Shown here piece by piece: positions 9,094 through 36,961 of a DNA stretch of 64,000 nucleotides (position 1 is the stretch's first letter; the number at the start of each line of letters is the position of its first letter). The position numbers were made by a program, and so were the translations under genes. The stretch lies in the UHGV virus genome UHGV-0277313; one strand, written 5' to 3'. The notes beneath the pieces are model-generated. The model was not told the origin of the DNA. It saw nothing but the letters and a program-made list of their open reading frames with translations, and made no database searches. The stretch comes from a virus.

Positions 9094-9120
9094 AAAATCT
9101 AATTGATTAAGGACACGCTA

Positions 9121-11391
9121 ATGAAATATCTAATTTTGCTTCGGGGTCTTCCTGGTTCTGGTAAAAGTTATTGGATAAAAGAAAACAAATTAGAAGATTA
9201 TACTATTTCTTCTGATAATGTTCGTTTGTTGTTTGCAACACCGTCTATTCCTTTTCAGGCTTGTTATAAGGATAGAGGAATTTCACAAAAGAATGACAAA
9301 GAGGTTTGGGATTTAATACATTCTTTAGTTGAACGTCGTTTAATGGAAGGCATGACAACTATCGTTGATGCAACACATTTGACTGTTAAGTCTATTAATT
9401 ATTACAAAAGCTTTTGTGCAAGTAATAATGTACGTTGTATCGTATTGGATTTTAATGTTAGCCTGGAAAGTGCTATTAACAATGATTTGTTAAGAAAAGG
9501 CACTTGTCGTTATGTAGGTTGTCAGATCATTAAAATAATGAATGACAAAAAAGAAGATGTGCCTAAATGGGTTGATTATACAACTGATAAAGAGCATGTT
9601 GTCAAGCTGTTTAATGACTGTATAGACGCGGTTGATTACAATGAGAAGTATGATAGCGTTGTAATCTTCGGTGATTTGCATGGTTGTTATGAACCTTTAA
9701 AACAGTGGTTTGACAAACATCCTGTTAACGACAAAACGAAATATATCTTTTGTGGTGATTATGAAGATAGAGGTATTCAACATAAAGAGTTGTTTGATTT
9801 TCTTTTAGAACATCGCAAAGATTTTAATTTCAAATTCTTAAAAGGCAATCATTCTTGTCGTTTGTTACAGATAGCTGAACGTGATAAAGATTCTATTCGT
9901 TATCCGGAATACTATAATACGTTTGAACAAATGAAAGATTTTGATCCTATTGAACTGAAAAAGTTTGTTCGGGATCAAGATGATATGGTTTACTTTACAT
10001 TTCGTAATAAAAACTTTTGTGTATCACATGGTGGTATTAGTTGTCTTCCGACTTTAAAGTTGAATAGTAGTGAATACATAAAAGGTCACGGAACATATCA
10101 AATGTCAAATGATGTGGATAATGATTTTATGTTCAATTCTTCTATTGAAGGTGATAACATTTATCAGGTACATGGTCATCGCAACGTTACAAATAGTGAT
10201 ATTCAAGTATGTGATCGTTGTTTTAATTTGGAAGGAGGAGTTGAGTTCGGTGGTGAATTACGAATTCTTCAGATTGATAGTGAAGGTAAATGTATACTGG
10301 ATTCTATTAGAAATACTGTTTTTAAAGAATTGACGGAAGGTTCGAAGATTGTCAATGAGTTTAAGTATTCTTCATTGATTAGAAAGTCGCAAAACCCAAA
10401 CGGTATTAGTTCTTATAACTTTAATCGAGACGCTTTTTTTGATAAAAAGTGGAATAGCTTGACGTGTACCGCAAGGGGCTTGTTTGTATATGATGATACA
10501 GATAAAGTTGCAGCAAGGTCTTTTAACAAATTCTTTAATTTGAATGAAACTAGTACTTCGAAATTAGATTATATTGTGAAGAATTGGTGTGGCGTCACGA
10601 ATGTTTATAAAAAGGAAAACGGATATTTAGGTATCATTTCTGTTGATGTTCGTGATAACAGTTTCATTTTAGCATCGAAAAGTCGTACTGATAAAGAGTT
10701 CGCAACGAATATTAGTAGAATCTTTAATGAAAAATTGTCAGAAGAACAACAGAACAATTTGAAGAAATGGTTATTGAAGGATGTGGATAAACATCAAGGT
10801 AATGCATATTCTTTAGTTGTTGAAGTAATTGATCCAATTAACGATCCGCATTTTGTTCAATATGATAAAGATGATATTGTTGTTTTGGATGCATTCGTTA
10901 ATGACTTTAATGAAAAAACTGTTTCATATGATGAACTGATTTCATTACATGACTTAACAGGTTTGACAATAAAAGAAAAGATTTGTGAGACGTGTGATCT
11001 AAAGACAACAATTCATGAACTTTGTAATACCAAAGATCATATCGAAGGATTTGTTTTAGAAGGGCATGATTATAATGGCAAGACTGTTCGTGTGAAGATT
11101 AAAACAAAATGGTACTTGATGTGGAAGAAGTTCAGATCAACAGGTGATTTCGATGAACGATTCGACATTAAAGATTTTTTGACAGTTGAACAACAAAAAT
11201 ACGCCAAACAAATCTATAGCCGAACAAAACAATTGATCGATTTACGTAATGGAGATACAGTTAGTACTGATGGTTCAATAAATGTAAATGATGAAATTGA
11301 CAATTATGTTATGTTTATTTATAGAGATTTGATTGGTGATTCGCGGATTAATATACCGAAAATTATACAATCTGTTGAAAATGTGAAATAG
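9121..11391 (+). CDS. polynucleotide kinase-phosphatase / RNA ligase (Pnkp-like three-domain RNA repair enzyme)
   Basis: N-term P-loop LLRGLPGSGKSYW; central calcineurin-type phosphoesterase motifs GDLHGCY, GDYEDRG, GNHS; C-terminal nucleotidyltransferase motif I YKKENGYLG (KxNG). ATG at 9121 has SD aagga; ORF track start 9103. Confidence 0.75.
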   Translation: MKYLILLRGLPGSGKSYWIKENKLEDYTISSDNVRLLFATPSIPFQACYKDRGISQKNDKEVWDLIHSLVERRLMEGMTTIVDATHLTVKSINYYKSFCASNNVRCIVLDFNVSLESAINNDLLRKGTCRYVGCQIIKIMNDKKEDVPKWVDYTTDKEHVVKLFNDCIDAVDYNEKYDSVVIFGDLHGCYEPLKQWFDKHPVNDKTKYIFCGDYEDRGIQHKELFDFLLEHRKDFNFKFLKGNHSCRLLQIAERDKDSIRYPEYYNTFEQMKDFDPIELKKFVRDQDDMVYFTFRNKNFCVSHGGISCLPTLKLNSSEYIKGHGTYQMSNDVDNDFMFNSSIEGDNIYQVHGHRNVTNSDIQVCDRCFNLEGGVEFGGELRILQIDSEGKCILDSIRNTVFKELTEGSKIVNEFKYSSLIRKSQNPNGISSYNFNRDAFFDKKWNSLTCTARGLFVYDDTDKVAARSFNKFFNLNETSTSKLDYIVKNWCGVTNVYKKENGYLGIISVDVRDNSFILASKSRTDKEFATNISRIFNEKLSEEQQNNLKKWLLKDVDKHQGNAYSLVVEVIDPINDPHFVQYDKDDIVVLDAFVNDFNEKTVSYDELISLHDLTGLTIKEKICETCDLKTTIHELCNTKDHIEGFVLEGHDYNGKTVRVKIKTKWYLMWKKFRSTGDFDERFDIKDFLTVEQQKYAKQIYSRTKQLIDLRNGDTVSTDGSINVNDEIDNYVMFIYRDLIGDSRINIPKIIQSVENVK

Positions 11392-20620: not shown

Positions 20621-20625
20621 ACTAT

Positions 20626-21462: not shown

Positions 21463-21545
21463 ACAGTGTGAGTTTGATGCAACAGCGTTTATTCCTAACG
21501 CAAATTCCATTCTTTTCAGTTCTGTGGTTGCTAAAACTGAATAAT

Positions 21546-21632: not shown

Positions 21633-22726
21633 GTTTAGCAACACGAGAGACCAGCTTCCTTGTTTCTTGTTTGTTGCCAGCCAATCGACGAAGGCTGTAG
21701 TTACAGATTTCTGGTTTTCGGTGAAATCGAAAAGTCAAATAACAATCAGTTTATTTGGCTGGTTGTTTCATAATAGGTTGCGGGTGATGAACCGATCCTT
21801 TCTATAAAAAGTAAGGGTGGGCTAATAAAATGCTTCCTTGATTGGAAGTTAAGCAAATCGATGGTTATCATCTTCAATCCCGCAATCGCGATTGTAATTT
21901 TATCGTCCCACCTTTATTTTACAAGTTTCTTGGTTTTGCTAAGCTTATTTAAAGGGCTTAGAGACCTTTTATCGCGGATTAGTGAAATGGTATCTTAAAA
22001 CTTCACACAAACCAGAGAAAAATAATGCAAGGTGAATAAAATTTTTCTTGCTTTTAGATTCTGGTTATGTTACTTTGATTAAGTTGATGGCGGATATGAG
22101 ATATTAAAGCTGTGCCATATATTTCTGGTAATGTCCGTTATTGATACCAGTCTTTGGTGGTTATCAGATATGCCCCAATATGAGTAAGGCTATTGATTGG
22201 TTACTTTGATTGGCATTTGAAAATACCGTAAGTTGTTCGGCAATGTGTGCGACAGTAACTGAGTTTAACCACATCAGGAGAGATGAGCTTGCTCATCGAT
22301 ATAGTCCCTGATACTGGAAAAGCCGATTTCATTGGTTTTCATTGAAATTGGTAACTATCACATTAGGCTCTTACCTTAAAATTACCAGTTCGAGTCTGGT
22401 GTCCGCCCCCAATTCAATTCCTTACATGGAATTGTTTCTGGTAAGTTCGCGCGATAGTCAGTACCAGAACCTAAACCTGACAAAGTCTTAGCATTGACTT
22501 TAAACTGCTTAACCTTATGCATAGAGATAGGATAAATGCTTCAGACTTTAAGCTGTCATCTTAAAGGGCTTTGCAAATTTACCGTAAATTGCCAGAAAAG
22601 AAGAGGCTGTGATAGTGTCTAGAATTCTTCCGATTGTGAGTTCGATAATCTCATAGATTTGACCGTCCATCACTTTTAAAGTGGCTCTCTTAGCTGGTTC
22701 TGAGTGGTCATAAAACCAGCTTTAAT

Positions 22727-23104: not shown

Positions 23105-23178
23105 TTCGGGATCGACTAAAGGTAGGTCAACACACTTTGACTGTGTTAATGTTGGTTCAAATCCAGCTCCCGAAACCA
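23105..23178 (+). tRNA. tRNA-Gln (anticodon TTG)
   Basis: acceptor ttcggga/tcccgaa perfect, anticodon stem acaca/tgtgt with loop ctTTGac, T-arm ttggt-tcaaatc?-cagct approximate, CCA. Confidence 0.6.
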
Positions 23179-23531: not shown

Positions 23532-24824
23532 CTAATCTTCACCATTGGCATAAACAAAAAAGAAGCCAGGCTGTATTTGTGTAGTAGTATATGTTGCCGT
23601 TGAGTCTATACCTAAAATCATAACATCACCTTTTAAAACCGGCAACAAAACACAAATTTCAGCGTTATTACCGTTTGCTTTGCTTATTGATTTTGTATGT
23701 TTACTTCTCACTTCAAAAACAATCCATGATCCTTCTTTTGAACATATAAAATCACCAGTAAACATTCCGTTCGCAGGTGCAAGATAACGTGTACCATTTG
23801 TTCCTAAAGTCAATTGAATATATTTTCCTGAAGGCATTGCCATGCCAGATATATCTGAACGTGTATATGTATTAATTGGTGGTGTTATAGAAGGTTCAAA
23901 AGAAGTAATGTTAAATGCACTATTTGTTGAAATATCATTAGCTATAATAATTTCTCTTGATTTGCCATAAACACCAGCGCCATTGCTTCTAAATGTTTCA
24001 TTTGTTTTTGGTTTGTACCAAACGGAATCATCTGAAACTGGTTGATTATTTTGTATAAAATATTTTCCAGTTCGAATCAGAATACCTTGATCGTTTATTG
24101 ACAATGGTTGTCTATCTGGATCTTTGATTTGGTATGAATAACTGGTTAATGAAACCTTATCAAATGTTTTTGTTATTGATTTATATGTCCCATCTTCATT
24201 CAGACCGTCAGCGAATTGATATTTTACACCAGGTAACGCAAATGCAGTTGAACCGATATATCCAAATCCGTTAAAGATTTGATCAACAGAAACTATATTA
24301 TTACCTGTTGTGGCGCTGTTTGTGCAAATACAAATTGGGAGACTCATAGTAACTGATAACGAACCGTCGTTATATGATTCCATTTTATTTGTTGTTAAAT
24401 TGTAAAAAGCTCCAGTATAATTGTCAGGTACTGTTTTACCGGAATTATTGTTTCCTCTTCTGAATAAACCATTACCATTAGATGAAACAAAAAGAGGAAG
24501 TGTTAATGCGGTGGAAGTTGGCTCTGTATATGTTAAATCTTTTGTTAATATAATAATGTCAAATTTTCTTGTGATACCATCAGTTTCAAATCCATTAGGA
24601 ATATAAACTTTAGTTCCAGCTTTGATTGTTATAACACCATTATTTAGTTCCGCTTTAACAGTTTGCGGAATTTCAAGAATTCGATTGGTTGTATAATTGA
24701 TTACGTTAGTTTTTAATTTATTATCAACGTTATCATTAGTTGAATAATCACCAACATTTTGTTTATTTTGTAATGTTTGTGGCAATTGATTTACTGTTGT
24801 TTGTTTAACTGTATAGCTTGACAT
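23532..24824 (-). CDS. tail fiber / receptor-binding-like protein, paralog 1
   Basis: 430 aa; N-term MSSYTVKQTTVNQL...NRILEIPQTVKAELNNGVITIKAGTKVYIPNG shared with 59746-60945 and 63717->. Confidence 0.65.
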   Translation of the reverse strand: MSSYTVKQTTVNQLPQTLQNKQNVGDYSTNDNVDNKLKTNVINYTTNRILEIPQTVKAELNNGVITIKAGTKVYIPNGFETDGITRKFDIIILTKDLTYTEPTSTALTLPLFVSSNGNGLFRRGNNNSGKTVPDNYTGAFYNLTTNKMESYNDGSLSVTMSLPICICTNSATTGNNIVSVDQIFNGFGYIGSTAFALPGVKYQFADGLNEDGTYKSITKTFDKVSLTSYSYQIKDPDRQPLSINDQGILIRTGKYFIQNNQPVSDDSVWYKPKTNETFRSNGAGVYGKSREIIIANDISTNSAFNITSFEPSITPPINTYTRSDISGMAMPSGKYIQLTLGTNGTRYLAPANGMFTGDFICSKEGSWIVFEVRSKHTKSISKANGNNAEICVLLPVLKGDVMILGIDSTATYTTTQIQPGFFFVYANGED

Positions 24825-24867
24825 TTGTATTGCCTTTCATGACTAATGATATTTAAAGAACATCAAG

Positions 24868-24916
24868 TCGTACGAATAGTTTTTCTAAATCACTTTTTAT
24901 AAAAATACTCGTACGA
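24868..24916. promoter_or_regulatory. pair of TCGTACGA palindromic motifs in divergent intergenic region
   Basis: aagTCGTACGAatag at 24868 and ctcGTACGAttcgacgttcttaaattatag at 24909, between fiber (-) and gly-rich (+) genes. Confidence 0.45.
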
Positions 24917-24957
24917 TTCGACGTTCTTAAATTATAGTTAATGATGCAGGTGTTGTA

Positions 24958-25614
24958 ATGACTATTTATAAAGGTTCACAAAAAGTAAAGCAGATTGCCA
25001 GTAAAAATAAATCTGTTAAAAGGATTTATTGTGGAACGAAATTAATATTTGGAACAAAAGCCAGTAAATTATTGGTTTATACAACATCTGGTTCAATAAC
25101 GATACCTAATAATACAATATCATGTATAGTTCATGTTGTTGGAAGTGGTGGAAGTTCTGGTGGTACTAATCCATATGCTCATGAACTTCATTGTGCATCT
25201 GGTGGTGGGTCAGCAGGATATTCACGAAAACAATATAATTCTAGCCTATCTGGACAAACTATCAATTTTACAGTAGGTCAACCTATATCGTCATATTGCC
25301 AAAATGGTCAAAATTCATCTTTTCTTGCTCAAATCGGTGGAATGGGTTTTGCAGGAATAGCTGCAACAGGCGGTGCATCTCAACCTGGTGGAGTCGGCGG
25401 TGCAGCTTCAGGAGGTGATGTTAATACAAATGGTTCACAAGGAGAGCAAGGTTGCTGGCTAGCTTGGGGCGGCGGCAGTGGTGGTCAAGGTAGAGGTGCA
25501 ACAGGTCATACAATAAATGGTGTTCAATATGGGTTTGGTGGAACATGTACTGGCGTAGGTTCCCCAACATCTGGTAGTGGTTGTGTCATCGTTGAGTTAA
25601 TTTATTGGGCATGA
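24958..25614 (+). CDS. glycine-rich structural protein (VVGGGG-motif family)
   Basis: 218 aa; N-term IYKGSQKV...IYCGTKLIFG, then HVVGSGGSSGG and Gly-rich body; divergent from fiber gene. Confidence 0.6.
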   Translation: MTIYKGSQKVKQIASKNKSVKRIYCGTKLIFGTKASKLLVYTTSGSITIPNNTISCIVHVVGSGGSSGGTNPYAHELHCASGGGSAGYSRKQYNSSLSGQTINFTVGQPISSYCQNGQNSSFLAQIGGMGFAGIAATGGASQPGGVGGAASGGDVNTNGSQGEQGCWLAWGGGSGGQGRGATGHTINGVQYGFGGTCTGVGSPTSGSGCVIVELIYWA

Positions 25615-25693
25615 TTCTTTACTTTTTTAGTTGATTATTTTTAATGATTATGTTAATGTAAATCCATTGTTTGAGAATTAGAAGGAGAGAACA

Positions 25694-25993
25694 GTGGACT
25701 TTACTTTGGCTGCTATGGCAAGTGTTCCATATTCTGCTAACAAGTTGTTTTTATTAGCAACTTGTTTGGTATCGTGTATTTATTCAACGGTTTATTTAAT
25801 ACACTCCAAAGATAAACTAGTTACAGAAAGTAACTATAAATTTCTTTTATGTATTTTAATAGTAGCAATCGTCGATGCAACTTTTATTTTCTTGTGCTGG
25901 GATAGGTTGACTTTTGATGAAATATGTGGAATGTTTATATGTGCACCTATTGTTTATTTGATCACATCTGTGTTAAAAAAGGTTAATAAATGA
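25694..25993 (+). CDS. membrane protein (3 predicted TM segments)
   Basis: 99 aa hydrophobic ORF with SD aaggagag. Confidence 0.5.
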   Translation: MDFTLAAMASVPYSANKLFLLATCLVSCIYSTVYLIHSKDKLVTESNYKFLLCILIVAIVDATFIFLCWDRLTFDEICGMFICAPIVYLITSVLKKVNK

Positions 25994-26346
25994 AACATTT
26001 TTATTGGTATGGTGGTTATATTAAAAATAAAAAGCAATATCAACGTGTTGAATTCATAATTGCACAAGAAGATAAAAAACTGTATCAGTTCGTTGATTAC
26101 AAACTTTTTAAAGAGATTAAAACTGAAACAAAAGATATTTGGAAAAACGCATCTAAATTAATTCAGGAAGCAGGACATTGGAGTGATGAAGCGGATGCGG
26201 CTTTAGCCTTTAATGGTTATTTGTGGTCTGAAATAACAGAACAAGAATTTAAAGAAATCTATCAGACAGGGACTGTTGAGGAAAAAGACTTGCGAATGAT
26301 TTATTTGCAGTGGCTAAAGGATACAGGAATTAACAGAATCAGATGA
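25990..26346 (+). CDS. hypothetical protein
   Basis: 118 aa ORF overlapping previous stop (ATGA). Confidence 0.5.
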   Translation: MKHFYWYGGYIKNKKQYQRVEFIIAQEDKKLYQFVDYKLFKEIKTETKDIWKNASKLIQEAGHWSDEADAALAFNGYLWSEITEQEFKEIYQTGTVEEKDLRMIYLQWLKDTGINRIR

Positions 26347-26399
26347 TAAAAGTTTATAAGACCAAATTGAATTTAACATATAATTAGCGTAAGCAATTT

Positions 26400-27482
26400 A
26401 TGGCTAATGCTGGTTGTGCTCGTTGGGCTTATAACTATGTTGTCGGTAAAGAAACTGAATCTTTAAAGAGCAATAAATATATTCCTGTTAATGATTTAAG
26501 AAAAGAAGTTACAAAATTAAAACAAACAGATGAATTAAATTGGTTATTTAATTATGATTGTGATATTGTTAAGCAATCAATGAAAGATGCTGATAAAGCA
26601 TTCAGAACATTTTTTAAGAATAAACAGAAATTTGGATTTCCTAAATTTCATTCTAAACATTCATCTAAACAATCTTTTTATGTTGATGGTGTTAAATTAA
26701 AAGTTTGGTCGAATAAAATCAGAGTACCAAAAGTAGGTTATGTTAAGTTATATGAAAAAGATTATATTCCAACGGATGTTAAAAGTTATACCAATCCAAG
26801 AATTTTATTTGATGGAATAAGTTGGTATATTTCTGTTGGTGTAAAAGAAGATGATCCTAAAAAGATTACAAATAATGTTGTTATTGGCATTGATTTAGGA
26901 TTAAAGGAATTAGCAACATGTTCCAATGGACTTGTTATCCATAATATATCCAAATCAAAAAGATATAAAAAGTTAGAAAAGAAATTAAAAAGACAACAAA
27001 GGCAAATGTCAAGATCCTTAGAAAGGAATAAGATTGGAAAGAAATTTGTCAAGACAAAGAACTTTGAGAAATATAGAAAGAGATATTTAAAGACAAGTAT
27101 TAAGATGAATAATCTGAAGATAGATTATTTCAATAAATCTATTGTAGATATCATGAAAACCAAGTGTTGTACAATAGTTCTCGAAGATTTAGCTGTAAAG
27201 AATATGCAGAAAAATAGAAAAATATCTAATGCTTTTCAGAAATCTGCTATTTCTCAGTTTAGATCAAGATTGATTCAGAAAGCTGAAATGCTTGGTGTCA
27301 GTATATCTATCGCAGATAGATTCTTTCCAAGTTCAAAGATGTGTTCTCATTGTGGACATATTAAAAAAGATCTGACATTGTCAGATAGAATATATCATTG
27401 TGATATATGTGGGTTTGAGGTTGATCGTGATTTAAATGCTGCGATCAATCTCAAGAATACCGTGAGATCCACGGGAATTTAA
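26400..27482 (+). mobile_element. tnpB: TnpB (IS200/IS605 OrfB family RNA-guided RuvC nuclease)
   Basis: FGFPKFHSKH block; RuvC-I IGIDLGLKELATCSNG; C-terminal zinc finger CSHCGH...CDICGF followed by DRDLNAAINL (RuvC-III). N-terminus may be disrupted (KVYKTKLNLTYN* in another frame just upstream). Confidence 0.75.
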
Positions 27483-27580
27483 GCCTTCTATTGATTTGTT
27501 AAGATTATACTTGACAAATTCATGTAGGAATTATAAGATTAAATACTTAGTTATAACTTATAAAGATCGGAAAAAGAATA

Positions 27581-28540
27581 ATGAGTAATGTTGATCTAAT
27601 TGAATGGTGGTTGCATCAATTTAAATTTACCGAACAAGATATGAACTTGTTGCAATCGTATGAAACTGATTTTATTATTACAAATAAAGATTACGATATT
27701 GTAAGAGAAAAAGCTTTGTCGATGTTGCCTGTACATTCAATTGATTATCATATTCATTTTGATACTTGTGCAACAAACATAATTGATAATTTATTTTTCA
27801 AGTATGTCGATGATGACACATTAGTCATTACAACAATGAGCGAACATCCTTCTGTAAAAAAGAATTTAGAGAAGTGCAAGAATGTAATATACATGTGTTG
27901 TAACGGAAAAGTGATTGAAGATTTTTATAAGCAATCGGACAAAATAGCTAATTTTAAAAAGGTATTTGTTTATAATATAGCTTTATCTGTTGGTGATGGG
28001 CATATAACATATAATGACAATTTATTGGAGCTGAAAAGGAATCTAGATTCATTAGGTATCAAATCAGTTTTTGTATTAGATGCTGTACAAGAATTGTTTA
28101 TGTTGCCGCGTGATTATTCAATCTATGATTATATTATTGGTACTGCACATGCATTCGTCACGAAATACGATACTGGAGTACTTTTAAGTAAAGAGTATAT
28201 ACCGTCAGCTAAATCGTGTTTATCACAAGGTGATCAGTATTTAGATTTATTGTCAATGTTGATAAAACATAAAGAACAATTATATCAATTTAAATATGTA
28301 ATGGTGCAAGTATTTGGAAAATATTTATCGACAGATAGCGCTTTAAGTGTAACAGAAAACGGGCCGTATGTATTCAACTTGATTGATAAAAAGAATCGAT
28401 TGGTTGGAATTACTGAAGCAGATCCAATTGCACAACCTGAAAATACTAATGCAACATTAAGAGCTTGCGAATCTTTATTGGACCAAAATACGTTTATAAA
28501 TAAAGTGGAAACGATTAAATATCTGTTGTCGGAGAACTAA
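27581..28540 (+). CDS. cysteine desulfurase-like (aminotransferase class V fold) protein, paralog 1
   Basis: VITTMSEHPSVKKNLEKCKNV and VLDAVQELFMLPRDYSIYDYIIGTAHAF resemble IscS/NifS ITSxxEHxAV and VDAVQS...SGHK, but Lys of SGHK is Ala. Confidence 0.5.
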   Translation: MSNVDLIEWWLHQFKFTEQDMNLLQSYETDFIITNKDYDIVREKALSMLPVHSIDYHIHFDTCATNIIDNLFFKYVDDDTLVITTMSEHPSVKKNLEKCKNVIYMCCNGKVIEDFYKQSDKIANFKKVFVYNIALSVGDGHITYNDNLLELKRNLDSLGIKSVFVLDAVQELFMLPRDYSIYDYIIGTAHAFVTKYDTGVLLSKEYIPSAKSCLSQGDQYLDLLSMLIKHKEQLYQFKYVMVQVFGKYLSTDSALSVTENGPYVFNLIDKKNRLVGITEADPIAQPENTNATLRACESLLDQNTFINKVETIKYLLSEN

Positions 28541-28542
28541 AC

Positions 28543-29400
28543 ATGAATGAAAAGAAAGAATTAATAAATATTTTTGATTATGATTTGTTTGATTGGGCAG
28601 ATATGAAAACACATTCAATCTCAACTAGTAAATCAACACAAGAAGAAGATAAAAAGTCGTTTATTAAAGCATATAAATTAAATGAAGTAGAAGTAGCTAT
28701 TGAGCCGCAAAGCTATCCTGAATTTCTAAAAACAGGGTCAGTAGGAATTGTTTATAGTGGCGGTTATGATTCAACTGTCTTAATGCTTCAAGCGTTAATG
28801 AACGGGGAAACAGTTAAACCGATTATATTTAATTTTGCACAGGATGATATAATTAAAGCAGTAAACTTGTCTATTTTAAAAAATAGATTTGGTGAGAATT
28901 TATTGGAACCTATTTGGTTCAATTTTTTCGGTTTGCAAGGCGGAATGTGCGGAACACAATGTACACAACAGTTGGCAATTCACAATATGTTGACATATTT
29001 GTCTAATGATGTTTTGAAAAGTTTGAAAGAGATTCAGGTAGGATACGTAATGAACGATGACGCTGTTTCTTTTCAAGAGGAATTGAAAGATGTTGTATCA
29101 ATTGGATTTAAGATTCAAGATAAAGTCAATGTTCCTATTACATATCCTTTAATACAAAAACATAAATATTATATAGATGATTTTATTCAACAACATTTAG
29201 GGTTCAATCATTTATGTTTGTCTTGCCAGTTGCCAAGTTTTAATTATTATAAAGATTCTGATGCTTTATATATTATCACGGCAACTTGTAATGGCTGTAC
29301 ATCTTGTATGCATTCACAGTTATATAATTTGAATTTTTATCGTGGTAATTGTGTTGTTTTAGCAACAAGAATCCCATTTGCTAAACGATCTTGTTTTTGA
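28543..29400 (+). CDS. PP-loop ATPase (QueC/TtcA-like) with C-terminal Cys cluster
   Basis: GIVYSGGYDSTVLM (SGGxDS PP-loop); C-terminal CLSCQL...CNGCTSC metal-binding cysteines. Confidence 0.6.
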   Translation: MNEKKELINIFDYDLFDWADMKTHSISTSKSTQEEDKKSFIKAYKLNEVEVAIEPQSYPEFLKTGSVGIVYSGGYDSTVLMLQALMNGETVKPIIFNFAQDDIIKAVNLSILKNRFGENLLEPIWFNFFGLQGGMCGTQCTQQLAIHNMLTYLSNDVLKSLKEIQVGYVMNDDAVSFQEELKDVVSIGFKIQDKVNVPITYPLIQKHKYYIDDFIQQHLGFNHLCLSCQLPSFNYYKDSDALYIITATCNGCTSCMHSQLYNLNFYRGNCVVLATRIPFAKRSCF

Positions 29401-29437
29401 TAGACTAAAAAGAAACTAATTGATTTATAGGTGATAA

Positions 29438-30202
29438 ATGATTTTTGCTGATACAGAAACAACTGATTTGACTGAACCAAAAGTCTGTTCAATCGCAATG
29501 ATTAAAGTTGATCAGTTTGGGAGCATTGTTGATACTTTGTATGAAATGATAAACCCTGAAAAAGAAGTATCATTAAATGCAAGTCAGGTTAATGGTTTTT
29601 CTTTAGAATTATTACAATCATATAAAACATTTCGTGAATTGGCTGATAAAATCATTAATTTCGTTGGTGATGAAGTTGTTGTTTTCCATAATGCAGATTT
29701 TGATATGAGTGTATTAAATAAAGAATTTACTGAATGTGGTAAAAATGTTGATTGGAAAATTATTGATACGTTACGTTTATCTTGTGATATCTTAAATAGT
29801 AAACATAAATATGTCAAACATAATTTAAATGCTTTAACTGAATATTATAATTTGTCGAATTTACGTGATGACAAACATGATGCTTTAATAGATACAAAAA
29901 TGTTGAAAGAAATCTATTGTTGTTTGATGAAAGATTATAAAGAAATTAAAAACACAAAAGATTTTTGGACACAGAGAGGTCTAGTTGAATTAGCACATTA
30001 CCCTAAATCAAAAGTGTGTATTGGAGGAATGTGTTATAAAACATGTGATCCTAATAGAACACGTGAATATTGGCGTGGTTATGTTTGGTTAAATTCAGGT
30101 GATGTTGTTGAGCCTATATATACAAACAAAATAACATTTAATACACGTGATGGAAAAATGACTTTTGATTTAGCATCTATTTCTATTTTGAAAATAAAAT
30201 AG
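29438..30202 (+). CDS. DEDD-family 3'-5' exonuclease (DnaQ-like)
   Basis: Exo I MIFADTETTDL, Exo II VVFHNADFDMSVL, Exo III HDALIDTKML; extra ~90 aa Cys-containing C-terminal region. Confidence 0.7.
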   Translation: MIFADTETTDLTEPKVCSIAMIKVDQFGSIVDTLYEMINPEKEVSLNASQVNGFSLELLQSYKTFRELADKIINFVGDEVVVFHNADFDMSVLNKEFTECGKNVDWKIIDTLRLSCDILNSKHKYVKHNLNALTEYYNLSNLRDDKHDALIDTKMLKEIYCCLMKDYKEIKNTKDFWTQRGLVELAHYPKSKVCIGGMCYKTCDPNRTREYWRGYVWLNSGDVVEPIYTNKITFNTRDGKMTFDLASISILKIK

Positions 30203-30262
30203 TTATTGACATTTATTCTTTAATGATATAGCATATAACTATATACAGAAGGAAGGTGTATT

Positions 30263-30676
30263 GTGATGAAAATTCGTTTAAGTCAAGAAGAAATGAAACA
30301 AGTAACAATCTTGCGTAATATCTTTAAAGGAAGATATGTTGAATGTTTTTTAAATTCTTCTGATAAGAACACAAGCGTTGTTCGTGTTTTGAAGAAACAA
30401 GAAAGAGTTTTTCAAGGAAGCTATTGGAATCAATCACATGAACCTCTTCGTGCAGACGTTAATGTGTTTTACTTTAGTTCATCTGATGCAGTTTCGTTGT
30501 ATGTGAAGGCATTTTATGACAACAAGGAAATTGGGTTCAATATTGAAATTGATATAAATGATTTACGACAGGTTACAAAACAGACTGTATTAACGGATTT
30601 AAAGTTAACACCTTTAGTTAAAGGTGTGGTTATAAAATTAAAAGATTTGGGACAAACAACATTGGAATCAATTTAA
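30263..30676 (+). CDS. C-terminal-tail paralog family protein (ends DLGQTTLESI)
   Basis: 137 aa; promoter-like TTGACA at ~30206; tail motif. Confidence 0.6.
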   Translation: MMKIRLSQEEMKQVTILRNIFKGRYVECFLNSSDKNTSVVRVLKKQERVFQGSYWNQSHEPLRADVNVFYFSSSDAVSLYVKAFYDNKEIGFNIEIDINDLRQVTKQTVLTDLKLTPLVKGVVIKLKDLGQTTLESI

Positions 30677-30688
30677 GGGTAACTAGTT

Positions 30689-31000
30689 ATGATTAAACCT
30701 ATTGAAGAAAATATTGAGCTGTTGGAAAATCTTTTGAAAAAACATTTAAAAGGTTTTGTACAATTTTCTGAAAAAGATGATAATGTTGAAATTGACAATG
30801 GTTTCATTTGTTTTAAAATGATTCAAGTTACAGATGGTTTTTCTGGTTATTCTTTAAATATGCGTATGTTGCTATCCGAATTGATGTTAATAACTAAAAA
30901 AACACAATCAAATGAAATTGAGTTACATTATAATTGGGACAATGATTTTGTGGATGTTTCTATAAAAGAGGCTGGTGTATATACGCTTGAGACTGTTTAA
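30689..31000 (+). CDS. C-terminal-tail paralog family protein (ends EAGVYTLETV)
   Basis: 103 aa, tail motif. Confidence 0.55.
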   Translation: MIKPIEENIELLENLLKKHLKGFVQFSEKDDNVEIDNGFICFKMIQVTDGFSGYSLNMRMLLSELMLITKKTQSNEIELHYNWDNDFVDVSIKEAGVYTLETV

Positions 31001-31359
31001 TGATTGATGACGCGCTTTCTAAAAAGATTGCAAAATTAGCAACAAAGTTACACAATAAAAAATTTGTTGATGAAGATAATAATGAATTCGTTGTTCGTAT
31101 ATCCCCGAAAATTTATGAAACACATACAAAAAAATATATAGACTTTTGGTTGGATAGTAATTACTATTTGCTACGGATTTTAGCTGTTCATAAAAATTTT
31201 TTATTTAGAAGAAGAAAGTGGTTTCATATTCAAATACCTATTGATGATTTTGCAAATATAGATTTAGATTTATCATCAATCACATTTACAAAATGTAAAG
31301 ATAGTGTTATCAAATTAAAATTTGTTGATATTGGAACAGCTTGTTTGAATGAAATTTAA
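31000..31359 (+). CDS. C-terminal-tail paralog family protein (ends DIGTACLNEI)
   Basis: 119 aa, tail motif. Confidence 0.6.
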   Translation: MIDDALSKKIAKLATKLHNKKFVDEDNNEFVVRISPKIYETHTKKYIDFWLDSNYYLLRILAVHKNFLFRRRKWFHIQIPIDDFANIDLDLSSITFTKCKDSVIKLKFVDIGTACLNEI

Positions 31360-31419
31360 TGTTGACATTGTGCAAAATTTAATATAATATATTTATATAG
31401 TTTTAGGAGAAAGTGGCAT

Positions 31420-31863
31420 ATGAGAATTTTTGTTGTTCCAAGAAAGTATATCAAAATGTTTATGCATACAGATATGTTTTTTAAACATAATAACTTTATC
31501 AGTATTGGTGAAGTTGCAGGTTATGAAGGAGTACCTGTTAATACTGAAAATGTTTTAAAACTTGTGTTCGACGATATGTCAGATAAAGAAACAGTTGGAA
31601 CATTGTTTACCGAAGAACATGCCATTCAAATTAAAAACTTTGTTGATCGTATTGATAAAAGTAAAACTTTGTATGTTAACTGTTTCGCAGGTATATCAAG
31701 AAGCGGTGCAGTTGGTACGGTGATTAACGATTATGTCAACTGTTATCTTAACGGGTTGAAAAAGAATGAAGATTGGTATTCATTCTTTGACGATAATAAA
31801 CAAATCAAACCAAATGCTTATATTATGAGGGTTATGAATAAAACGTTTGGATTGACATATTAA
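31420..31863 (+). CDS. dual-specificity/tyrosine phosphatase-like protein (CX5R motif)
   Basis: VNCFAGISRSGAVG = C-x5-R P-loop; SD ttaggaga upstream; promoter TTGACA at 31363. Confidence 0.55.
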   Translation: MRIFVVPRKYIKMFMHTDMFFKHNNFISIGEVAGYEGVPVNTENVLKLVFDDMSDKETVGTLFTEEHAIQIKNFVDRIDKSKTLYVNCFAGISRSGAVGTVINDYVNCYLNGLKKNEDWYSFFDDNKQIKPNAYIMRVMNKTFGLTY

Positions 31864-31877
31864 ATTAGGAGGGTAAA

Positions 31878-32159
31878 ATGAAATTGTGCAAAGATAAATT
31901 CAAAGAAAAGGTTGGTTATTTTTATCTTGATGCTATTGATTGGGTTTGTAATGACACAGATCTTAACAATTTCATTTTACCTGAAAAGACAGAATTTATG
32001 TCAATTAAAGAAATGATTCGATATGCTATTGATAATGTCCCTGCATCTGCAACAGAATCATTTGCACAATTTCATTACATTAAAAATGATGTGATAAAAG
32101 AAGAAACAGCGTTGCTGTTTAAATATTACAACGGTTCGCTTAAAACATTTCAAATCTAA
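31878..32159 (+). CDS. hypothetical protein
   Basis: 93 aa, SD taggagggt. Confidence 0.5.
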   Translation: MKLCKDKFKEKVGYFYLDAIDWVCNDTDLNNFILPEKTEFMSIKEMIRYAIDNVPASATESFAQFHYIKNDVIKEETALLFKYYNGSLKTFQI

Positions 32160-32161
32160 AT

Positions 32162-32905
32162 TTATCCTGTTGATTTCATGTATGTAAAATCAAGAATTAC
32201 ACAACCAACTATTCCGTTTGTATATGCTGCGCCGTAGCTAGGTTGAAAACCCCCTGCTCCATAGCCTGTAGTTGTATCATCATATGCACTAGGTGTTGGC
32301 GCAAACACACTGACTGAACCATATGGAACGGTATAGCCATTTTTATTTAAACTGTTACCTCCTGTTGCTGTACCACCATTTGCTGCATGGCCGTTGTCAT
32401 ACCAACCGCTCATTCCACCTTGACCGCCTGTTGCTTGCATGTTAATATTTGTTCCAACACAGCTAGAAGTACCACCATCAGCACCTTTATGACCACCCGC
32501 TGAAGTAGGCCCGCCAGCTGCTGCACCTGCGGCGCACGCTCCAGCTTTACCAACAATACAAGTTAAACTCTGAAGACTTAAATCTTTTGCTGCTGTGCCA
32601 GTAAAGACGCTTTTACATACAGCGCCACTGCCACCTGAACGACCACACCATTTATTACCGTGATAGAATGTGCTTTCACCGCTACCACCACCGCCGCCGA
32701 CGACCGTAATTGTTAACGACAATAATTCTTTAGGTAAAGTAAAGCTATACGTTCCAGCAACGTTAAATGTTTTGTTTTCAGTTGTTTGAACTTTAGTAAC
32801 ATAAACCAGCTGTTTACCTTTGTAGACTCTCCTAATATTTTTATTATCAGAAGATATTTTTGTTAAATTTTTATTAGACTTTTTTATTGTCATCATTCTT
32901 CTCAC
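32162..32905 (-). CDS. glycine-rich structural protein (VVGGGG-motif family)
   Basis: 247 aa; RRVYKGKQLVYVTK...LTITVVGGGGGSG then Gly/Ala-rich body. Confidence 0.6.
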   Translation of the reverse strand: MRRMMTIKKSNKNLTKISSDNKNIRRVYKGKQLVYVTKVQTTENKTFNVAGTYSFTLPKELLSLTITVVGGGGGSGESTFYHGNKWCGRSGGSGAVCKSVFTGTAAKDLSLQSLTCIVGKAGACAAGAAAGGPTSAGGHKGADGGTSSCVGTNINMQATGGQGGMSGWYDNGHAANGGTATGGNSLNKNGYTVPYGSVSVFAPTPSAYDDTTTGYGAGGFQPSYGAAYTNGIVGCVILDFTYMKSTG

Positions 32906-32961
32906 TAATTACTATTTATCGTAAGAACAAAGATTTATGTGATAAACAAATAACACTAAAC

Positions 32962-33000
32962 AAAAATGCCGGGCTAAAGTGCTCGGCATTTTTGTTTATT
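32962..33000 (-). terminator. rho-independent terminator
   Basis: aaaaatgccgggc-taaagtg-ctcggcattttt hairpin with T/A runs on both sides. Confidence 0.6.
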
Positions 33001-33014
33001 TATCTAATTCAATC

Positions 33015-33374
33015 TCAAAATTCAAAGACATAAGGTAATTCATCTTCACGAATTTCGAAAATCTTATCATGTGTCTTTACGAATCCATGTTCAACCAGAT
33101 ATTCAACAAAACCATAAAAAGGTGATTTTGCATCTTTCAACAAAGCGTCTTTATACATTTTTCTTAAGTTGAAATCTTTAATAACAAGAAAAGTTGTATG
33201 TTTTGCATCAGCATCATTGTCGGCAAATTCATTTAATTCAATTAATTCGCCAGCATGACAATCGAAGCCTTCAGGCTCATATGTATCCCAATCACGTTCG
33301 ATTTGATCTTCGTTAAGATATGAACGAACAAATTTACGATAGGATTCTTCGATTTTATTTTTAGAATCAGTCAT
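33015..33374 (-). CDS. hypothetical acidic protein
   Basis: 119 aa ORF. Confidence 0.5.
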   Translation of the reverse strand: MTDSKNKIEESYRKFVRSYLNEDQIERDWDTYEPEGFDCHAGELIELNEFADNDADAKHTTFLVIKDFNLRKMYKDALLKDAKSPFYGFVEYLVEHGFVKTHDKIFEIREDELPYVFEF

Positions 33375-33560
33375 TATTAAAACCTTTAGTTAAGTTGCAA
33401 CTGAATAAAGAACAAACTTAAAGACAATCAGCTTGACTTTTGTTTTTTAATTTGATATTTTAAAAACTTCACACAAACCAATGAAAATTGAAGAAAATTT
33501 CTTGCAAAATTTCATCGTTTGAGTTAATATAGAATAAATTGAGAAAAGAAGAAACGGAAA

Positions 33561-34754
33561 ATGATTCGCAGTTCAGCATTGACGTTAAAATTTGCAACAA
33601 GCAAAAAGCTGAACACCTTGGATTTGGTGTTTGACGAGTATGTCCGTGTTGTGAATTTGTATATTGATGCCTTGAGCCAATCAAAAGAACTGCCTAAATT
33701 CATCAATTTCAAAGTGGATACTTGGATTTCTGTTCAGCTCCAGCAAGTAGCTGGCAAACAAGCAGTGGAAATAATAAAATCTACCAGAAAGAAAGATCGA
33801 GAGATTAGATTGAAGAAATACAAGAAAACCTACAAGTATTTCTTAAATAAACAACGACAAAAGAAATTCATTAGCACGAAATTCAGCGAATTGAGATTGA
33901 ATTACAAAATAAAACCAAGGTATGATGGGAAAGTAATTCCGTTTGATCAACGCCAGTTTTCTTTATGTAAGTCAAATAATTCGTTTGACTTCTGGGTTCA
34001 TTTGCGTTGCCTTGGTAATAAATTTATTTTGGATTTGCCTTTGAAAAATCACAAGCACAATAAACAGTTTATAGATTGGAAACGAGTGGGTTCTTGTAGG
34101 TTGCTTAGAAACAATGGGAAATACAAAATTGAGTTGATTTATGAAAAAGAAGCTCCTAAATTAGCTAAACCAACAAAAATACTTGCAATAGATGCAGGAA
34201 TTAATTGCTTGATGTCTTGCTCAGATGGACGACAGCTTGGTTTAGAACTGAAGAAATTACTCAATGAATTGAATCAGAAACAACAGAAATCTAAATCATA
34301 CACTCGTAAATTGAACCAAATACATAACTATGTCCGTTGGTGCGTGAACCAGCTAAATTGGGGTAATTTATCTGATTTGGTGATTGAAAATCTGAAATAC
34401 ATTCAGATTGATACGAAGAAGCGAGTTAATAAAGTAACTTGTAAGTTGCTTTCCAAATGGAATTTGGGTTTATGGCGTAAAGCCATAGAACAAAAATGTG
34501 AAGAAAACTGTGTTTATTTGCATTATGTTAATCCCAAAGACACAAGCAGAACTTGTCCTAAATGCGGAAGCATTGACAAGGAAAACAGAAACGGTGAATT
34601 ATTTCATTGCATAAATTGTGGCTATGAAGCAAATGCTGACCTCAATGCAGCAATGAATATACTCACCCGGTTTTATCAGGAGAAACCTTTGCAGGTTGAT
34701 ATAGTCCTTGATTCTGCGAAAACTAATTTTAGTGATTTCATTAATTTTCATTAA
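33561..34754 (+). mobile_element. tnpB: TnpB (IS200/IS605 OrfB family RNA-guided RuvC nuclease), second copy
   Basis: RuvC-I ILAIDAGINCLMSCSDG; zinc finger CPKCGS...CINCGYEANADLNAAMNIL; 397 aa. Confidence 0.75.
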
Positions 34755-34797
34755 AATTGGTAACTATTGTAATTCCAATAACGAATTGAGGTTTAAT

Positions 34798-35706
34798 ATG
34801 ACATTTAATGACTTTTTGAAAATTAATGAAATCAAGGCATTGTTTAATTGCCCTGAAAATCTGATCTATCACCCTGAAGGCAATACAGGTGGTCATGTTG
34901 TCAAAGCATTAGAATGGTTAAATGCCAATTGCCCTTCTGAATACAAACACGATTGTTATATTGCAACATTGCTTCATGATATAGGAAAACCTTTAACGGA
35001 AAAGGAAAAGTTTCCTAAACATCCTAAACATGATGTATTGGGTGCTGAATTTATTACAAACAATTCAAATTTTCGTAAGGCTGTAGAGGATATTTACGGT
35101 GTTGTTGATTGGAAATTTGTCGAAAATGTTTGCCGTTATCACATGGTTTTTTGGCATTTTAAAGATAGAAATAAACGTGCATCTAGCTTTTTAACTTTAT
35201 TAGAAGATGTAGGCTATAAAAATATTGATAAATTTTTATGGTGTGTATTCGCTGATAATTGTAGTAATGACAATGTGAATGATAAAAGCTATGTAACATT
35301 GTTTCAGTTGTGTAAAGACTTGTTTAAAGACTTGAAAAACATGTGCGACAAAGTCATAGAACCTAGTCATAAATATAAACAATGGAAGAATATGTATTGG
35401 GAAACTAAAGTGCGAGTCTGTTCGGATGTTGTTAATACATTTAATAAAGAATCCAAAATTGTTGTGTTTGATGATTTGGTTCAATCTTTCATGAATATGC
35501 TAAAGAAAAAAGAAGGCAGTCAAATTAGCAATGATTCTGTTTCAATAAACAAAGAAAATTCGACATTATGGTTTAATGTTAACAATGTAAATTATGTTAT
35601 TGAAGTTTTTGATTTGCAAAAATGTAATTGTCGAGTCATTGCACCTGATTTATTTGAATTTAGATTTAGCACAGATTTCAACGTTTGGTTTGTTCGATTT
35701 AAATAA
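34798..35706 (+). CDS. HD-domain phosphohydrolase
   Basis: GHVVKALEW ... CYIATLLHDIGKP (H...HD motif); ATG at 34798 with SD gaggt; ORF track start 34708 overlaps tnpB. Confidence 0.55.
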   Translation: MTFNDFLKINEIKALFNCPENLIYHPEGNTGGHVVKALEWLNANCPSEYKHDCYIATLLHDIGKPLTEKEKFPKHPKHDVLGAEFITNNSNFRKAVEDIYGVVDWKFVENVCRYHMVFWHFKDRNKRASSFLTLLEDVGYKNIDKFLWCVFADNCSNDNVNDKSYVTLFQLCKDLFKDLKNMCDKVIEPSHKYKQWKNMYWETKVRVCSDVVNTFNKESKIVVFDDLVQSFMNMLKKKEGSQISNDSVSINKENSTLWFNVNNVNYVIEVFDLQKCNCRVIAPDLFEFRFSTDFNVWFVRFK

Positions 35707-36086
35707 TGCTTTTTAAAAATCTTTTATTTAGTACATCGTGGATAACAAATGAAAAAGTTGATGAATTTGTAAATTCAATAAATGGTTTACAATGTGAAGC
35801 ACATGTATCATTCGAAGGGCAAAGAGATGCGGTTATTAATCAGACTTCTAAAGTTGCAATCGCAAGTGATTACGACGTTTATTTCATAAATTTAAATTGC
35901 GTAATCAACAATAAAAAAGCTAAATTTAGTTTAATAGAAACGTTTTGTTTTGATCGAGGTTGGTTTGATAACACTAAATCTTTTGTTGGAAAGGAATATA
36001 AAATATTGTATAAAGATACAGTTAAAGGGCGTGTTCAATTTATCAGTGAAAAAGATGTAGGTGAAAGTTTGTTGGGAGACGTTTAA
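35706..36086 (+). CDS. C-terminal-tail paralog family protein (ends DVGESLLGDV)
   Basis: 126 aa, tail motif. Confidence 0.6.
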   Translation: MLFKNLLFSTSWITNEKVDEFVNSINGLQCEAHVSFEGQRDAVINQTSKVAIASDYDVYFINLNCVINNKKAKFSLIETFCFDRGWFDNTKSFVGKEYKILYKDTVKGRVQFISEKDVGESLLGDV

Positions 36087-36490
36087 TGGAAGATATAGAC
36101 ATTGCAAAAAGAAATTTTTCAAAGATATGTGACAAGTTTTTAGGACAAACTATAACTTGTCAATTTAAAGGATATATTGTTACACAGATTAAACGAATAA
36201 ATATTCATTTGAATGAAAATTTTCACTTTTACGAATGGATTGAACAACCTATTGGGAATGCATTACCTCAATTTAAGGATTGTTTTGAAATTCCTTTTGA
36301 AGCTGAAAGCGAAGTAAAAGGTAATGACGTAGTAAAAGGTAATTGTGTGCAATTTCCAGTATTTGTAAATACGAATGTTTTATTCAAAAATAATAGACAA
36401 TTGATTTTTAAATATGGATTGATTTTTGATTGCTTATATTGTGAAGTAGAAGCAGAAGAAGTTGGATTATCTGTTTTAAACGAGGTTTGA
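36086..36490 (+). CDS. C-terminal-tail paralog family protein (ends EVGLSVLNEV)
   Basis: 134 aa, tail motif. Confidence 0.6.
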   Translation: MEDIDIAKRNFSKICDKFLGQTITCQFKGYIVTQIKRINIHLNENFHFYEWIEQPIGNALPQFKDCFEIPFEAESEVKGNDVVKGNCVQFPVFVNTNVLFKNNRQLIFKYGLIFDCLYCEVEAEEVGLSVLNEV

Positions 36491-36949
36491 ATGAAATTAA
36501 AATATGTTTATTGGTGTTTATTTTTATCGCCTCAACTTGCTATGTTGATAGGGGACTGTTGGCATTTTGCACCTGCCATAATTTTATTCCCGTTGCTTCC
36601 TATATTTACTATTGATTTTAGTTTCAATCATTGTACAAACTATTTAACAGTACACAATGTTACTGTAAAACGTTTGGTTGTAAAGGGCAATGTTTTTTAT
36701 GAGATAACAAATGATTTTTATTATAGGCTTTCAGTTAATGAAAAAATTAATGAGTTACAAATTTTAACAACCAGTTTATCAGATTTTGATATGTTTATGT
36801 TTGATATTTTATTTAAACATGTTATTAATAATTGGGTCAAAAAACAGTTTAACGGGGAGTTAAAAATAAAATATATAAAATTACCTAATCAAATATGTTA
36901 TAGACTTGAAAAAGTAGATATTGGTAATGTTTGTCTTAATTCAATTTAG
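36491..36949 (+). CDS. C-terminal-tail paralog family protein with hydrophobic N-terminus (ends DIGNVCLNSI)
   Basis: 152 aa; N-terminal TM-like segment; tail motif. Confidence 0.55.
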   Translation: MKLKYVYWCLFLSPQLAMLIGDCWHFAPAIILFPLLPIFTIDFSFNHCTNYLTVHNVTVKRLVVKGNVFYEITNDFYYRLSVNEKINELQILTTSLSDFDMFMFDILFKHVINNWVKKQFNGELKIKYIKLPNQICYRLEKVDIGNVCLNSI

Positions 36950-36961
36950 AGGTGTGTGTAA

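Follow-up and report, generated by a model that had tools for sequence, protein, structure and literature searches.

Two non-autonomous IS607-family TnpB elements in a huge phage genome and a proposed role in RNA-guided homing

The stretch of 64,000 nucleotides from the virus genome UHGV-0277313 that is analysed here (the window) carries two genes encoding RNA-guided nucleases of the TnpB family, tnpB1 and tnpB2. In our reading, both are non-autonomous derivatives of two different insertion sequences (ISs) of the IS607 family, which combine a serine-recombinase transposase (TnpA) with TnpB and its guide, the omega RNA (ωRNA); these are proposed to have invaded a phage lineage in which RNA-guided homing may help them to spread. 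We put the probability of this reading at about three in four. The evidence comes from the boundaries of the elements, their precise presence or absence and differing insertion sites in related phages, their association with IS607-type TnpA, purifying selection, and covariation in the RNA of TnpB2. The initial annotation of this DNA had assigned it to a phage, which holds: a 276,920-bp contig of a huge phage (ENA ERZ28615576 scaffold_19) contains the window without any difference. It had also described the two genes as canonical stand-alone elements of the IS1341 type, and this description has to be revised.

The two open reading frames (ORFs) are as follows.

26400-27482, + strand: tnpB1 ORF as listed, 360 amino acids, from an internal ATG
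33561-34754, + strand: tnpB2 ORF, 397 amino acids, intact, with D211/E276/D360 and CxxC...CxxC

Membership of the TnpB family, which had been proposed from motifs, is upheld for both. Read from the translations, TnpB1 has IGIDLG (D184), VLEDL (E281), CSHC/CDIC and DRDLNAA (D363; numbering of the full 379-codon frame described below), and TnpB2 has AIDAG (D211), VIENL (E276), CPKC/CINC and NADLNAA (D360). The aspartate of RuvC-I, the glutamate of RuvC-II and the D-LNAA motif of RuvC-III are present in both proteins, with the CxxC...CxxC zinc finger in the C-terminal half of each, and the catalytic columns of TnpB2 are invariant in an alignment of 28 sequences. Profile searches, named beforehand as the point on which the assignment might fail, place TnpB1 above every cutoff (NCBIfam NF040570 guided_TnpB, 225 bits, cutoff 100; Pfam PF01385, 61 bits, cutoff 30.5; PF07282, 66 bits, cutoff 26.3). 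TnpB2 is placed above that of PF07282, the TNB domain (68.7 bits, cutoff 26.3), just under that of NF040570 and under that of PF01385, and its search retrieved 7,678 cluster representatives at E<=1e-3. The top Protein Data Bank (PDB) match of TnpB1, obtained via an intact relative that is 99% identical, is the IS607 TnpB of ISFba1 (8IAZ, E 1.4e-61); ISDra2 TnpB is a weaker match (E 6e-34) and does not match TnpB2. Both genes are TnpB-family nuclease genes, for which RNA-guided cleavage dependent on a target-adjacent motif (TAM) is predicted from sequence. Ratios of nonsynonymous to synonymous substitution (dN/dS) of 0.10-0.19 among TnpB1 copies and 0.07-0.19 among TnpB2 copies indicate that purifying selection acts on both.

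Related classes of protein were considered as well. Resemblance to Cas12f and CasPhi is confined to the C-terminal RuvC/TNB region, and no direct-repeat families are found in 24000-37000, leaving the genes without an adjacent CRISPR array; a type V CRISPR-Cas effector was rejected. A nuclease-dead repressor of the TldR type is ruled out because the RuvC catalytic residues are intact and conserved. TnpB1 and TnpB2 share only ~22% identity over ~230 amino acids and are therefore not copies of one element; they represent two separate element families. A further TnpB of 397 amino acids, at the edge of contig L005, belongs to another family and was excluded. TnpB genes are already common among phage records, in 398 of which TnpB1-like sequences were found by tblastn, and their role there has seldom been worked out.

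The affiliation with IS607 becomes clear from relatives that retain a transposase. On contig L009, a 201-amino-acid TnpA with MerR and Resolvase domains overlaps the start of a tnpB whose product is 86% identical to TnpB1. On contigs L098-L104 and L118, a 190-amino-acid resolvase is followed, with a 4-nt overlap, by a tnpB 67-70% identical to TnpB2, an arrangement seen in at least five different phage contexts. The TnpAs of L009, L098 and L118 pass the profile NF033518 (transpos_IS607) with 184-209 bits (cutoff 110). Since close relatives thus lie directly behind IS607-family serine recombinases, the elements are not of the IS605/IS1341 kind that is moved by a Y1 transposase, and the earlier assignment to that kind does not stand. 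The serine-recombinase gene just upstream of tnpB is a feature of the relatives and is missing from the window, and here the earlier statement that no transposase of either type accompanies the tnpBs was correct. In searches of the window with IS607 TnpAs, tblastn gave no match and blastn gave a remnant of ~35 nt, and no Y1 domain was found among the ORFs scanned, which did not include every ORF of the window. No Y1 HUH partner of either TnpB clade was recovered, all autonomous relatives carrying serine recombinases. As the window has no tnpA, its copies are non-autonomous derivatives rather than complete IS607 elements.

The ends of the elements add to this picture. TnpB1-type insertions have left flanks TTAAGG, CAAAGG, GAAGG and AGAGG (consensus A[AG]GG) and right ends GATCGG or GATTGG. 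Elements of both types lack a target-site duplication and terminal inverted repeats, filled and empty junctions sharing only a core of 2-4 nt. IS607 elements are described as having a GG core, a G-rich TAM and a scaffold ending in UCGG (PMC10690162; PMC13565253; PMC11061315), and the published ωRNA end UCGG (PMC10690162) is also the scaffold end of the TnpB1 type. It had been suggested that the ends of the two copies be compared with each other to define element boundaries. Boundaries were indeed found, with the families proving unrelated and their junctions different, GG in the TnpB1 type versus AT/TAT in the TnpB2 type. Elsewhere, contig L104 carries another IS607 element (2234-4056, minus strand; 213-amino-acid MerR-resolvase TnpA and 376-amino-acid TnpB) that abuts the right end of an autonomous element of the TnpB2 type. 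It appears from such sequences that two IS607 families co-occur and insert side by side in smaller phages too.

For TnpB2, the boundaries come from the sister phage L003, whose flanks are 97-99% identical to those in the window and from which exactly 33459-34767 is absent.

33459..34767, + strand: complete tnpA-less TnpB2-type element, 1,309 bp, from the filled window versus the empty L003
33459..33560, + strand: left end of the element, 102 nt, TTTAAAAACTTCACACAAACC..., also present in L097, in L017 and in the miniature element that begins at 21994
34582..34767, + strand: TnpB2 ωRNA-like module in the 3' end of tnpB2, with a single-stranded tail UAACUAU
34768..34787, + strand: predicted guide-template flank of TnpB2, TGTAATTCCAATAACGAATT, placed by its position

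The right end, ...GGTAACTAT, lies 13 nt past the stop codon. The empty site in L003 reads TTTGATAT followed directly by TGTAATTCC or, at greater length, …TTTGATAT followed by TGTAATTCCAATAAC…; because TAT(T) stands at both junctions, the register of the element is ambiguous by up to 3-4 nt. In nine insertions (that in the window and eight others), [G/A]TAT or GGAT precedes the left end and AACTAT forms the right end. The TnpB2 family thus joins at an AT/TAT core, unlike the GG of most IS607 elements, and GG ends and insertion at GG were seen in none of the nine. The empty allele of L003 has ...GATAT and then the same 20 nt as 34768..34787, with one mismatch at position 16; since it holds both GATAT and the predicted guide target, it would be a substrate for TnpB2. 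A second copy of the family, with 79% DNA identity, lies ~120 kb away on the same contig. The suggestion that tnpB1 and tnpB2 bracket the genes between them as a unit fails, the two being of unrelated families and the sister phage having TnpB1 without TnpB2; a composite transposon of TnpB1 and TnpB2 was rejected on the same grounds.

Three observations concern the surroundings of this insertion. An 18-nt perfect inverted repeat links 34733-34750 in the TnpB2 right end (TTTCATTAATTTTCA…) with 34817-34834 at the start of the HD-domain gene downstream; as the empty-site phage L003 has the arm in the HD-domain gene too, that arm is native, and the repeat may be due to chance in AT-rich DNA or may be relevant to target choice or read-through transcripts. 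The HD-domain gene itself starts at ATG 34798 (302 amino acids), according to the gene calls of the source contig and conservation in L003; the ORF list places it at 34708-35706, from TTG 34708 inside tnpB2. Upstream, at 32162-32684, most of a minus-strand gene for a glycine-rich-domain protein (32162-32905) has no counterpart in L003 and L109, both of which carry an 89-amino-acid gene at this site; the cassette is thus variable, and the TnpB2 insertion lies ~800 bp from it.

The TnpB1 locus has a different history. The description of TnpB1 as canonical cannot be kept, given that the element is truncated at its 5' side and the gene has a nonsense codon.

26343..27482, + strand: full frame of tnpB1, 379 codons, from NF040570, the translation and relatives
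26385-26387, + strand: in-frame TAG at codon 15 of tnpB1, from the translation
26316..26350, + strand: 3' remnant of an IS607-type tnpA (blastn to nt 572-606 of the L009 tnpA, 88.6%, E 4e-7)
27380..27570, + strand: TnpB1 right end and ωRNA-like scaffold of four to five stems, ending ...AAAGATCGG at 27570
27571..27590, + strand: predicted guide-template flank of TnpB1, AAAAAGAATAATGAGTAATG, placed by its position 3' of the right end

The true start codon of the gene is ATG 26343, which overlaps the stop codon of the upstream ORF as ATGA, and 26400 is an internal ATG. From 26343, an N-terminus of the usual TnpB type (MIKVYKTKLNLTYN) is encoded before the TAG. Codon 15 is glutamine (CAG) in P0001 (99% identical, 379 amino acids) and in every other relative, and the TAG-truncated form is present on at least nine contigs. 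Two other relatives listed with 360 amino acids are different cases, that of L009 being intact and called from the inner ATG and that of L008 having a 2-nt insertion. Recoding of TAG to glutamine was considered and rejected: TAG terminates 10 of 90 long ORFs, read-through merges no genes elsewhere, and the genome uses the standard genetic code, with no suppressor tRNA in the window. We read the change from CAG to TAG as a plain nonsense mutation, which very probably inactivated TnpB1 in the window strain, where the protein is most likely non-functional.

On the 5' side of tnpB1, the ~35-nt tnpA remnant now supplies, in a different reading frame, the tail of an upstream ORF of 118 amino acids (25990-26346), and blastn found no counterpart in the window of the 121-nt left end known from L006, L008 and L005. 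A deletion would have removed the left end together with almost the whole of tnpA, joining tnpB1 to the upstream phage ORF via the ATGA overlap. On the 3' side, the right end ...GATCGG is complete at 27570, and likeness to five other insertions breaks off directly after GG; the predicted guide template covers the start of the downstream gene (319 amino acids). To judge by these sequences, TnpB1 is a stranded copy that has kept its right end and ωRNA region whole. In at least 15 contigs tnpB1 is kept without a left end or tnpA, and it is intact in several lineages. As homing needs only nuclease, RNA and homology, the intact alleles of sister phages could, by analogy, be free-standing RNA-guided homing nucleases. 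At this locus in contig L014 (581-1720, corresponding to window 26343-27482), flanks 97-100% identical enclose a tnpB1 that is a patchwork of 100-nt segments of 84-100% identity, and this mosaic suggests gene conversion between paralogous TnpB copies. In addition, 27571-27594 resembles the sequence after a TnpB1-type right end at 11219-11244 of L005 (~18 of 24 positions alike) in a different gene neighbourhood, a likeness that could reflect either coincidence or a common preference for targets.

In TnpB/ωRNA architecture, the guide is the flank immediately 3' of the right end (PMC13565253). The expectation that ωRNA would be expressed from the 3' ends is supported to different degrees, a structured module being present at both genes, with strong covariation for TnpB2 and with stability and conservation for TnpB1. 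The place predicted for it, some 150 nt downstream of the stop codon, is wrong for TnpB2, whose element ends 13 nt past the stop: the RNA-like module is contained in the ORF, within its final ~170 nt. Its structure was derived from an alignment of the last 200 nt of seven sequences and has 34 pairs, with 93.6% of cells paired versus 29-43% in controls with slid partners; in 10 pairs both partners have changed, where the controls have 1-3 such pairs, and the covariation score was reached by 0 of 500 shuffles. An inner hairpin after AUCAGGAGA differs in sequence in every copy of the TnpB2 type and always pairs (examples are AACCU/AGGUU, GUUCAA/UUGAAC, GGCAAAU/AUUUGCC and GAUGAGC/GCUCAUC). A three-helix 3' module with a free UAACUAU tail was obtained in six of eight single-sequence folds, including that of the miniature element described below. 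The putative TnpB1 RNA, taken as the 190 nt ending at 27570, is conserved, with a minimum-free-energy z-score of -3.66 and an alifold structure that is 95% paired. Rfam gives no match to the RNA region of TnpB1 or TnpB2, nor inside the miniature element; with no group I intron among its results, the elements are not IStrons.

The window also holds a miniature relative of the TnpB2 element inside a tRNA gene, and an empty site of the TnpB1 type.

21994..22358, + strand: miniature TnpB2-type element, 365 bp, with a left end and an ωRNA-like right end, without tnpB
21973..21993, + strand: 5' part of tRNA-Lys(CTT), whose D-loop is interrupted by the miniature element
22359..22411, + strand: 3' part of tRNA-Lys(CTT), from ARAGORN on the joined sequence (Rfam partial tRNA match at 22341-22400)
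9103..9129, + strand: empty TnpB1-type target site, TTGATTAAGG followed by ACACGCTAATG..., filled in L006/L007 (98% identical)

The miniature element was matched to the TnpB2 left and right ends by blastn, and only those two ends are common to it and the full elements. Its hairpin covaries (GATGAGC/GCTCATC), and its 3' module folds with a z-score of -5.0. When 21994-22358 is removed, a canonical 74-nt tRNA-Lys(CTT) results, which ARAGORN misses in the uninterrupted sequence. This restoration independently confirms the junction rule, with GGTAT before the element, …AACTAT at its right end and CAC after it. Rfam found no intron-like RNA family in the insert. The right end is a complete ωRNA-like module that could in principle be loaded by TnpB2 in trans. 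The empty TnpB1-type site is filled in L006, which matches the window at 96-99% identity along 17 kb, flanks included, and in which a stand-alone TnpB1-type copy of 1,349 bp (9880-11228), with the 121-nt left end and 88 nt past the stop, sits at the position of window 9112/9114. L006/L007 carry two TnpB insertions that are absent from the window: the one at 9112/9114, with a 379-amino-acid TnpB1-type protein, before the kinase-phosphatase-ligase gene, and one at ~17312-17330, with a 402-amino-acid TnpB, after the Dam methylase gene.

Taken with the published work on such systems (PMC10690162, PMC11061315, PMC13565253), from which the steps involving TnpA in trans, guided cutting and recombination are derived, these observations would fit the following course. 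TnpA from an autonomous copy, in a co-resident phage or in the host, would move the elements in trans. It would do so through conservative recombination at a short core, which is GG in the TnpB1 type and AT/TAT in the TnpB2 type. TnpB with its ωRNA, taking as its guide the ~16-20 nt that adjoin the right end on the outer side, would cut empty alleles that bear the TAM and the flank; these would be sites emptied by excision, or alleles in the genomes of co-infecting phages. Homologous repair would then copy the element into the cut allele, which amounts to RNA-guided homing. A bolder proposal, to which we would give only tentative credence, is that the TnpB2 type forms a distinct IS607 sub-family, with a serine recombinase that crosses over at an AT/TAT core, an AT-rich TAM and an ωRNA embedded almost entirely in the ORF. 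It would act as an RNA-guided gene drive among huge phages in co-infection, and ωRNA-only miniatures, like that in the tRNA-Lys gene, would be serviced in trans by TnpB2.

Several points weigh against the reading as IS607 derivatives that home. For TnpB2, the score against NF040570 is 98.1 bits, marginally below the cutoff of 100, that against PF01385 is 20.8 bits with a cutoff of 30.5, and the AlphaFold (AF2) model built from the 28-sequence alignment is poor, with a predicted local distance difference test (pLDDT) score of 51. Its putative TAM is a flank consensus ([G/A]TAT or GGAT), which resembles the element's own CTAT end and leaves the avoidance of self-cleavage unexplained. No tnpA is present in the window. 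For the TnpB1 locus of the window, no empty allele was found, every contig with identical flanking genes carrying tnpB1, and covariation in its RNA is not above controls, the available copies being too alike. Presence/absence polymorphism, finally, fits transposition alone equally well as homing.

Other explanations share part of this evidence. If the elements were IS200/IS605-type (IS1341-like) stand-alone copies and depended on a Y1 HUH transposase, acting in trans, to mobilise them in single-stranded form, the NCBIfam scores of TnpB1 would be as expected, IS200_TnpB (222.7 bits) exceeding IS607_TnpB (150.6 bits), with both below their 'exception' cutoffs; insertion of the TnpB2 type after an AT-rich tetranucleotide (…TAT) without duplication is, by itself, also compatible with IS605 rules. 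We nevertheless hold this highly improbable, given that each autonomous relative was found with an IS607 serine recombinase and none with Y1, that a serine tnpA remnant lies directly upstream of tnpB1, and that TnpB1-type ends and flanks obey the GG rule, with ISFba1 as the top solved relative. Decay offers another account, in which both genes and the miniature element are inert relics that are neither expressed nor active in the window phage. The state of TnpB1 (premature stop, no left end, no tnpA), the lack of a tnpA in the window and promoter-like sites that are no more frequent than in shuffled sequence would agree with it. TnpB2, however, retains its full length, every catalytic residue, both ends and an RNA module that covaries, and its very recent gain or loss relative to L003, together with low dN/dS, argues for recent activity of its family, so that we regard decay of the whole set as very unlikely.

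Domestication is in our judgement unlikely. Here the phage would have recruited TnpB1, TnpB2 or both, either to attack rival phages or host DNA under RNA guidance or to regulate, and the spread of the element itself would not be their function. Cutting of the empty allele in a competitor phage is 'homing' and 'competitor exclusion' alike (PMC13565253). Domestication can also appeal to the persistence of tnpB1 without left end or tnpA in those 15 or more contigs, coupled by ATGA to the upstream ORF and intact in several lineages, and to the purifying selection on the gene. Yet the guide is the adjacent flank, as in any mobile copy, with no reprogrammed guide or CRISPR-like array, and as the RuvC residues are intact, TnpB1 and TnpB2 are not TldR-type repressors. 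The window lineage also tolerates the TnpB1 nonsense codon, and TnpB2 is absent from a sister phage with 97-99% identical flanks.

Among characterised systems, TnpB1 is most readily set beside ISFba1 (PDB 8IAZ; PMC11061315), which it resembles in length (379 versus 387 amino acids, aligned in full), in the D/E/D triad, in a G-rich flank ending in GG and in a noncoding structured RNA, predicted in the case of TnpB1, that runs from the ORF 3' end to the element end; unlike ISFba1, the window copy lacks a left end and tnpA and has a nonsense codon. The flank consensus of the TnpB1 type is A[AG]GG, versus AGGAG/GAGGG published for ISFba1-related elements (PMC11061315). The right-end RNA (reRNA) of ISFba1-related TnpBs derives from RAGATH-18; as the TnpB1 RNA region has no Rfam match, kinship of its RNA with RAGATH-18 would be conjectural. 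IS607 elements of the CboIStron type (PMC10690162) likewise have a serine recombinase, a core dinucleotide common to target and ends, and scarless insertion and excision. Their TAM equals the TnpA target motif, and TnpB is proposed to cut empty sites and in this way to bring the element back or help it to spread (PMC10690162). Their ωRNA scaffold ends in ...UCGG, like the TnpB1-type right end ...GATCGG; they have a group I intron, which the window elements lack, and their GG/TGGG junctions differ from those of the TnpB2 type, with its AT/TAT junction, AT-rich flank and RNA almost wholly in the ORF. TnpB of ISDra2 and other IS200/IS605 elements belongs to the same protein superfamily and likewise uses a right-end ωRNA with a guide from flanking DNA; the partner of ISDra2, a Y1 HUH enzyme acting on single-stranded DNA with hairpin ends, did not turn up with either of the present clades. 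The free-standing homing endonucleases of T-even phages (Seg, Mob) are also nuclease genes between conserved phage genes, present or absent among close relatives and expected to spread in co-infection by cutting the allele without them. They recognise their targets by protein, whereas the window elements are predicted to be RNA-guided and keep transposon ends. The 365-bp element keeps just two ends, as do miniature inverted-repeat (MITE) and palindrome-associated (PATE) transposable elements; unlike in these, its right end is a complete ωRNA-like module.

The surrounding genome is of ~30% GC and encodes, within the window, a 13-tRNA array, a Dam methylase, a kinase-phosphatase-RNA-ligase fusion, an M16 peptidase and an ankyrin protein. 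The ankyrin repeats, M16 peptidase and tRNA array raised the question of a giant-virus origin, which was rejected on phage-like genes and relatives; nor does the window show any enrichment of AAAATTGA, the octamer of early promoters in mimivirus (15 occurrences, 23.5 expected). A related phage record, LR756497.1, is 309,049 bp long, and from these sequences the elements appear to have colonised a lineage of ~277-313-kb phages. A phage collection searched by megablast with 10 kb gave no match, and scans of IMG/VR turned up a single related contig for TnpB2, with nothing for TnpB1 or the TnpB1 right end. The fusion protein (9103-11391, 762 amino acids) joins a P-loop kinase, a metallophosphatase and a T4-type RNA ligase as an RNA-repair enzyme, and lies a few kb from the 13-tRNA array at 16237-23178; the pair suggests that the phage repairs or replaces tRNAs against host anticodon nucleases. 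The ankyrin-repeat protein, of 300 amino acids (6141-7043, minus strand), is unusual for a phage.

Current understanding is not overturned by these elements, which the published TnpB/IS607 model fits. The AT-core variant, the ORF-embedded ωRNA and the miniature ωRNA-only element in a tRNA gene are of moderate interest to specialists, and an IS607 variant with an AT-rich target motif would, if active, widen the targeting range of compact TnpB editors. With exact ends, filled and empty alleles, a covariation-backed RNA module, and autonomous, tnpA-less, truncated and miniature forms, the two families provide a natural data set that makes RNA-guided homing between co-infecting phages directly testable.

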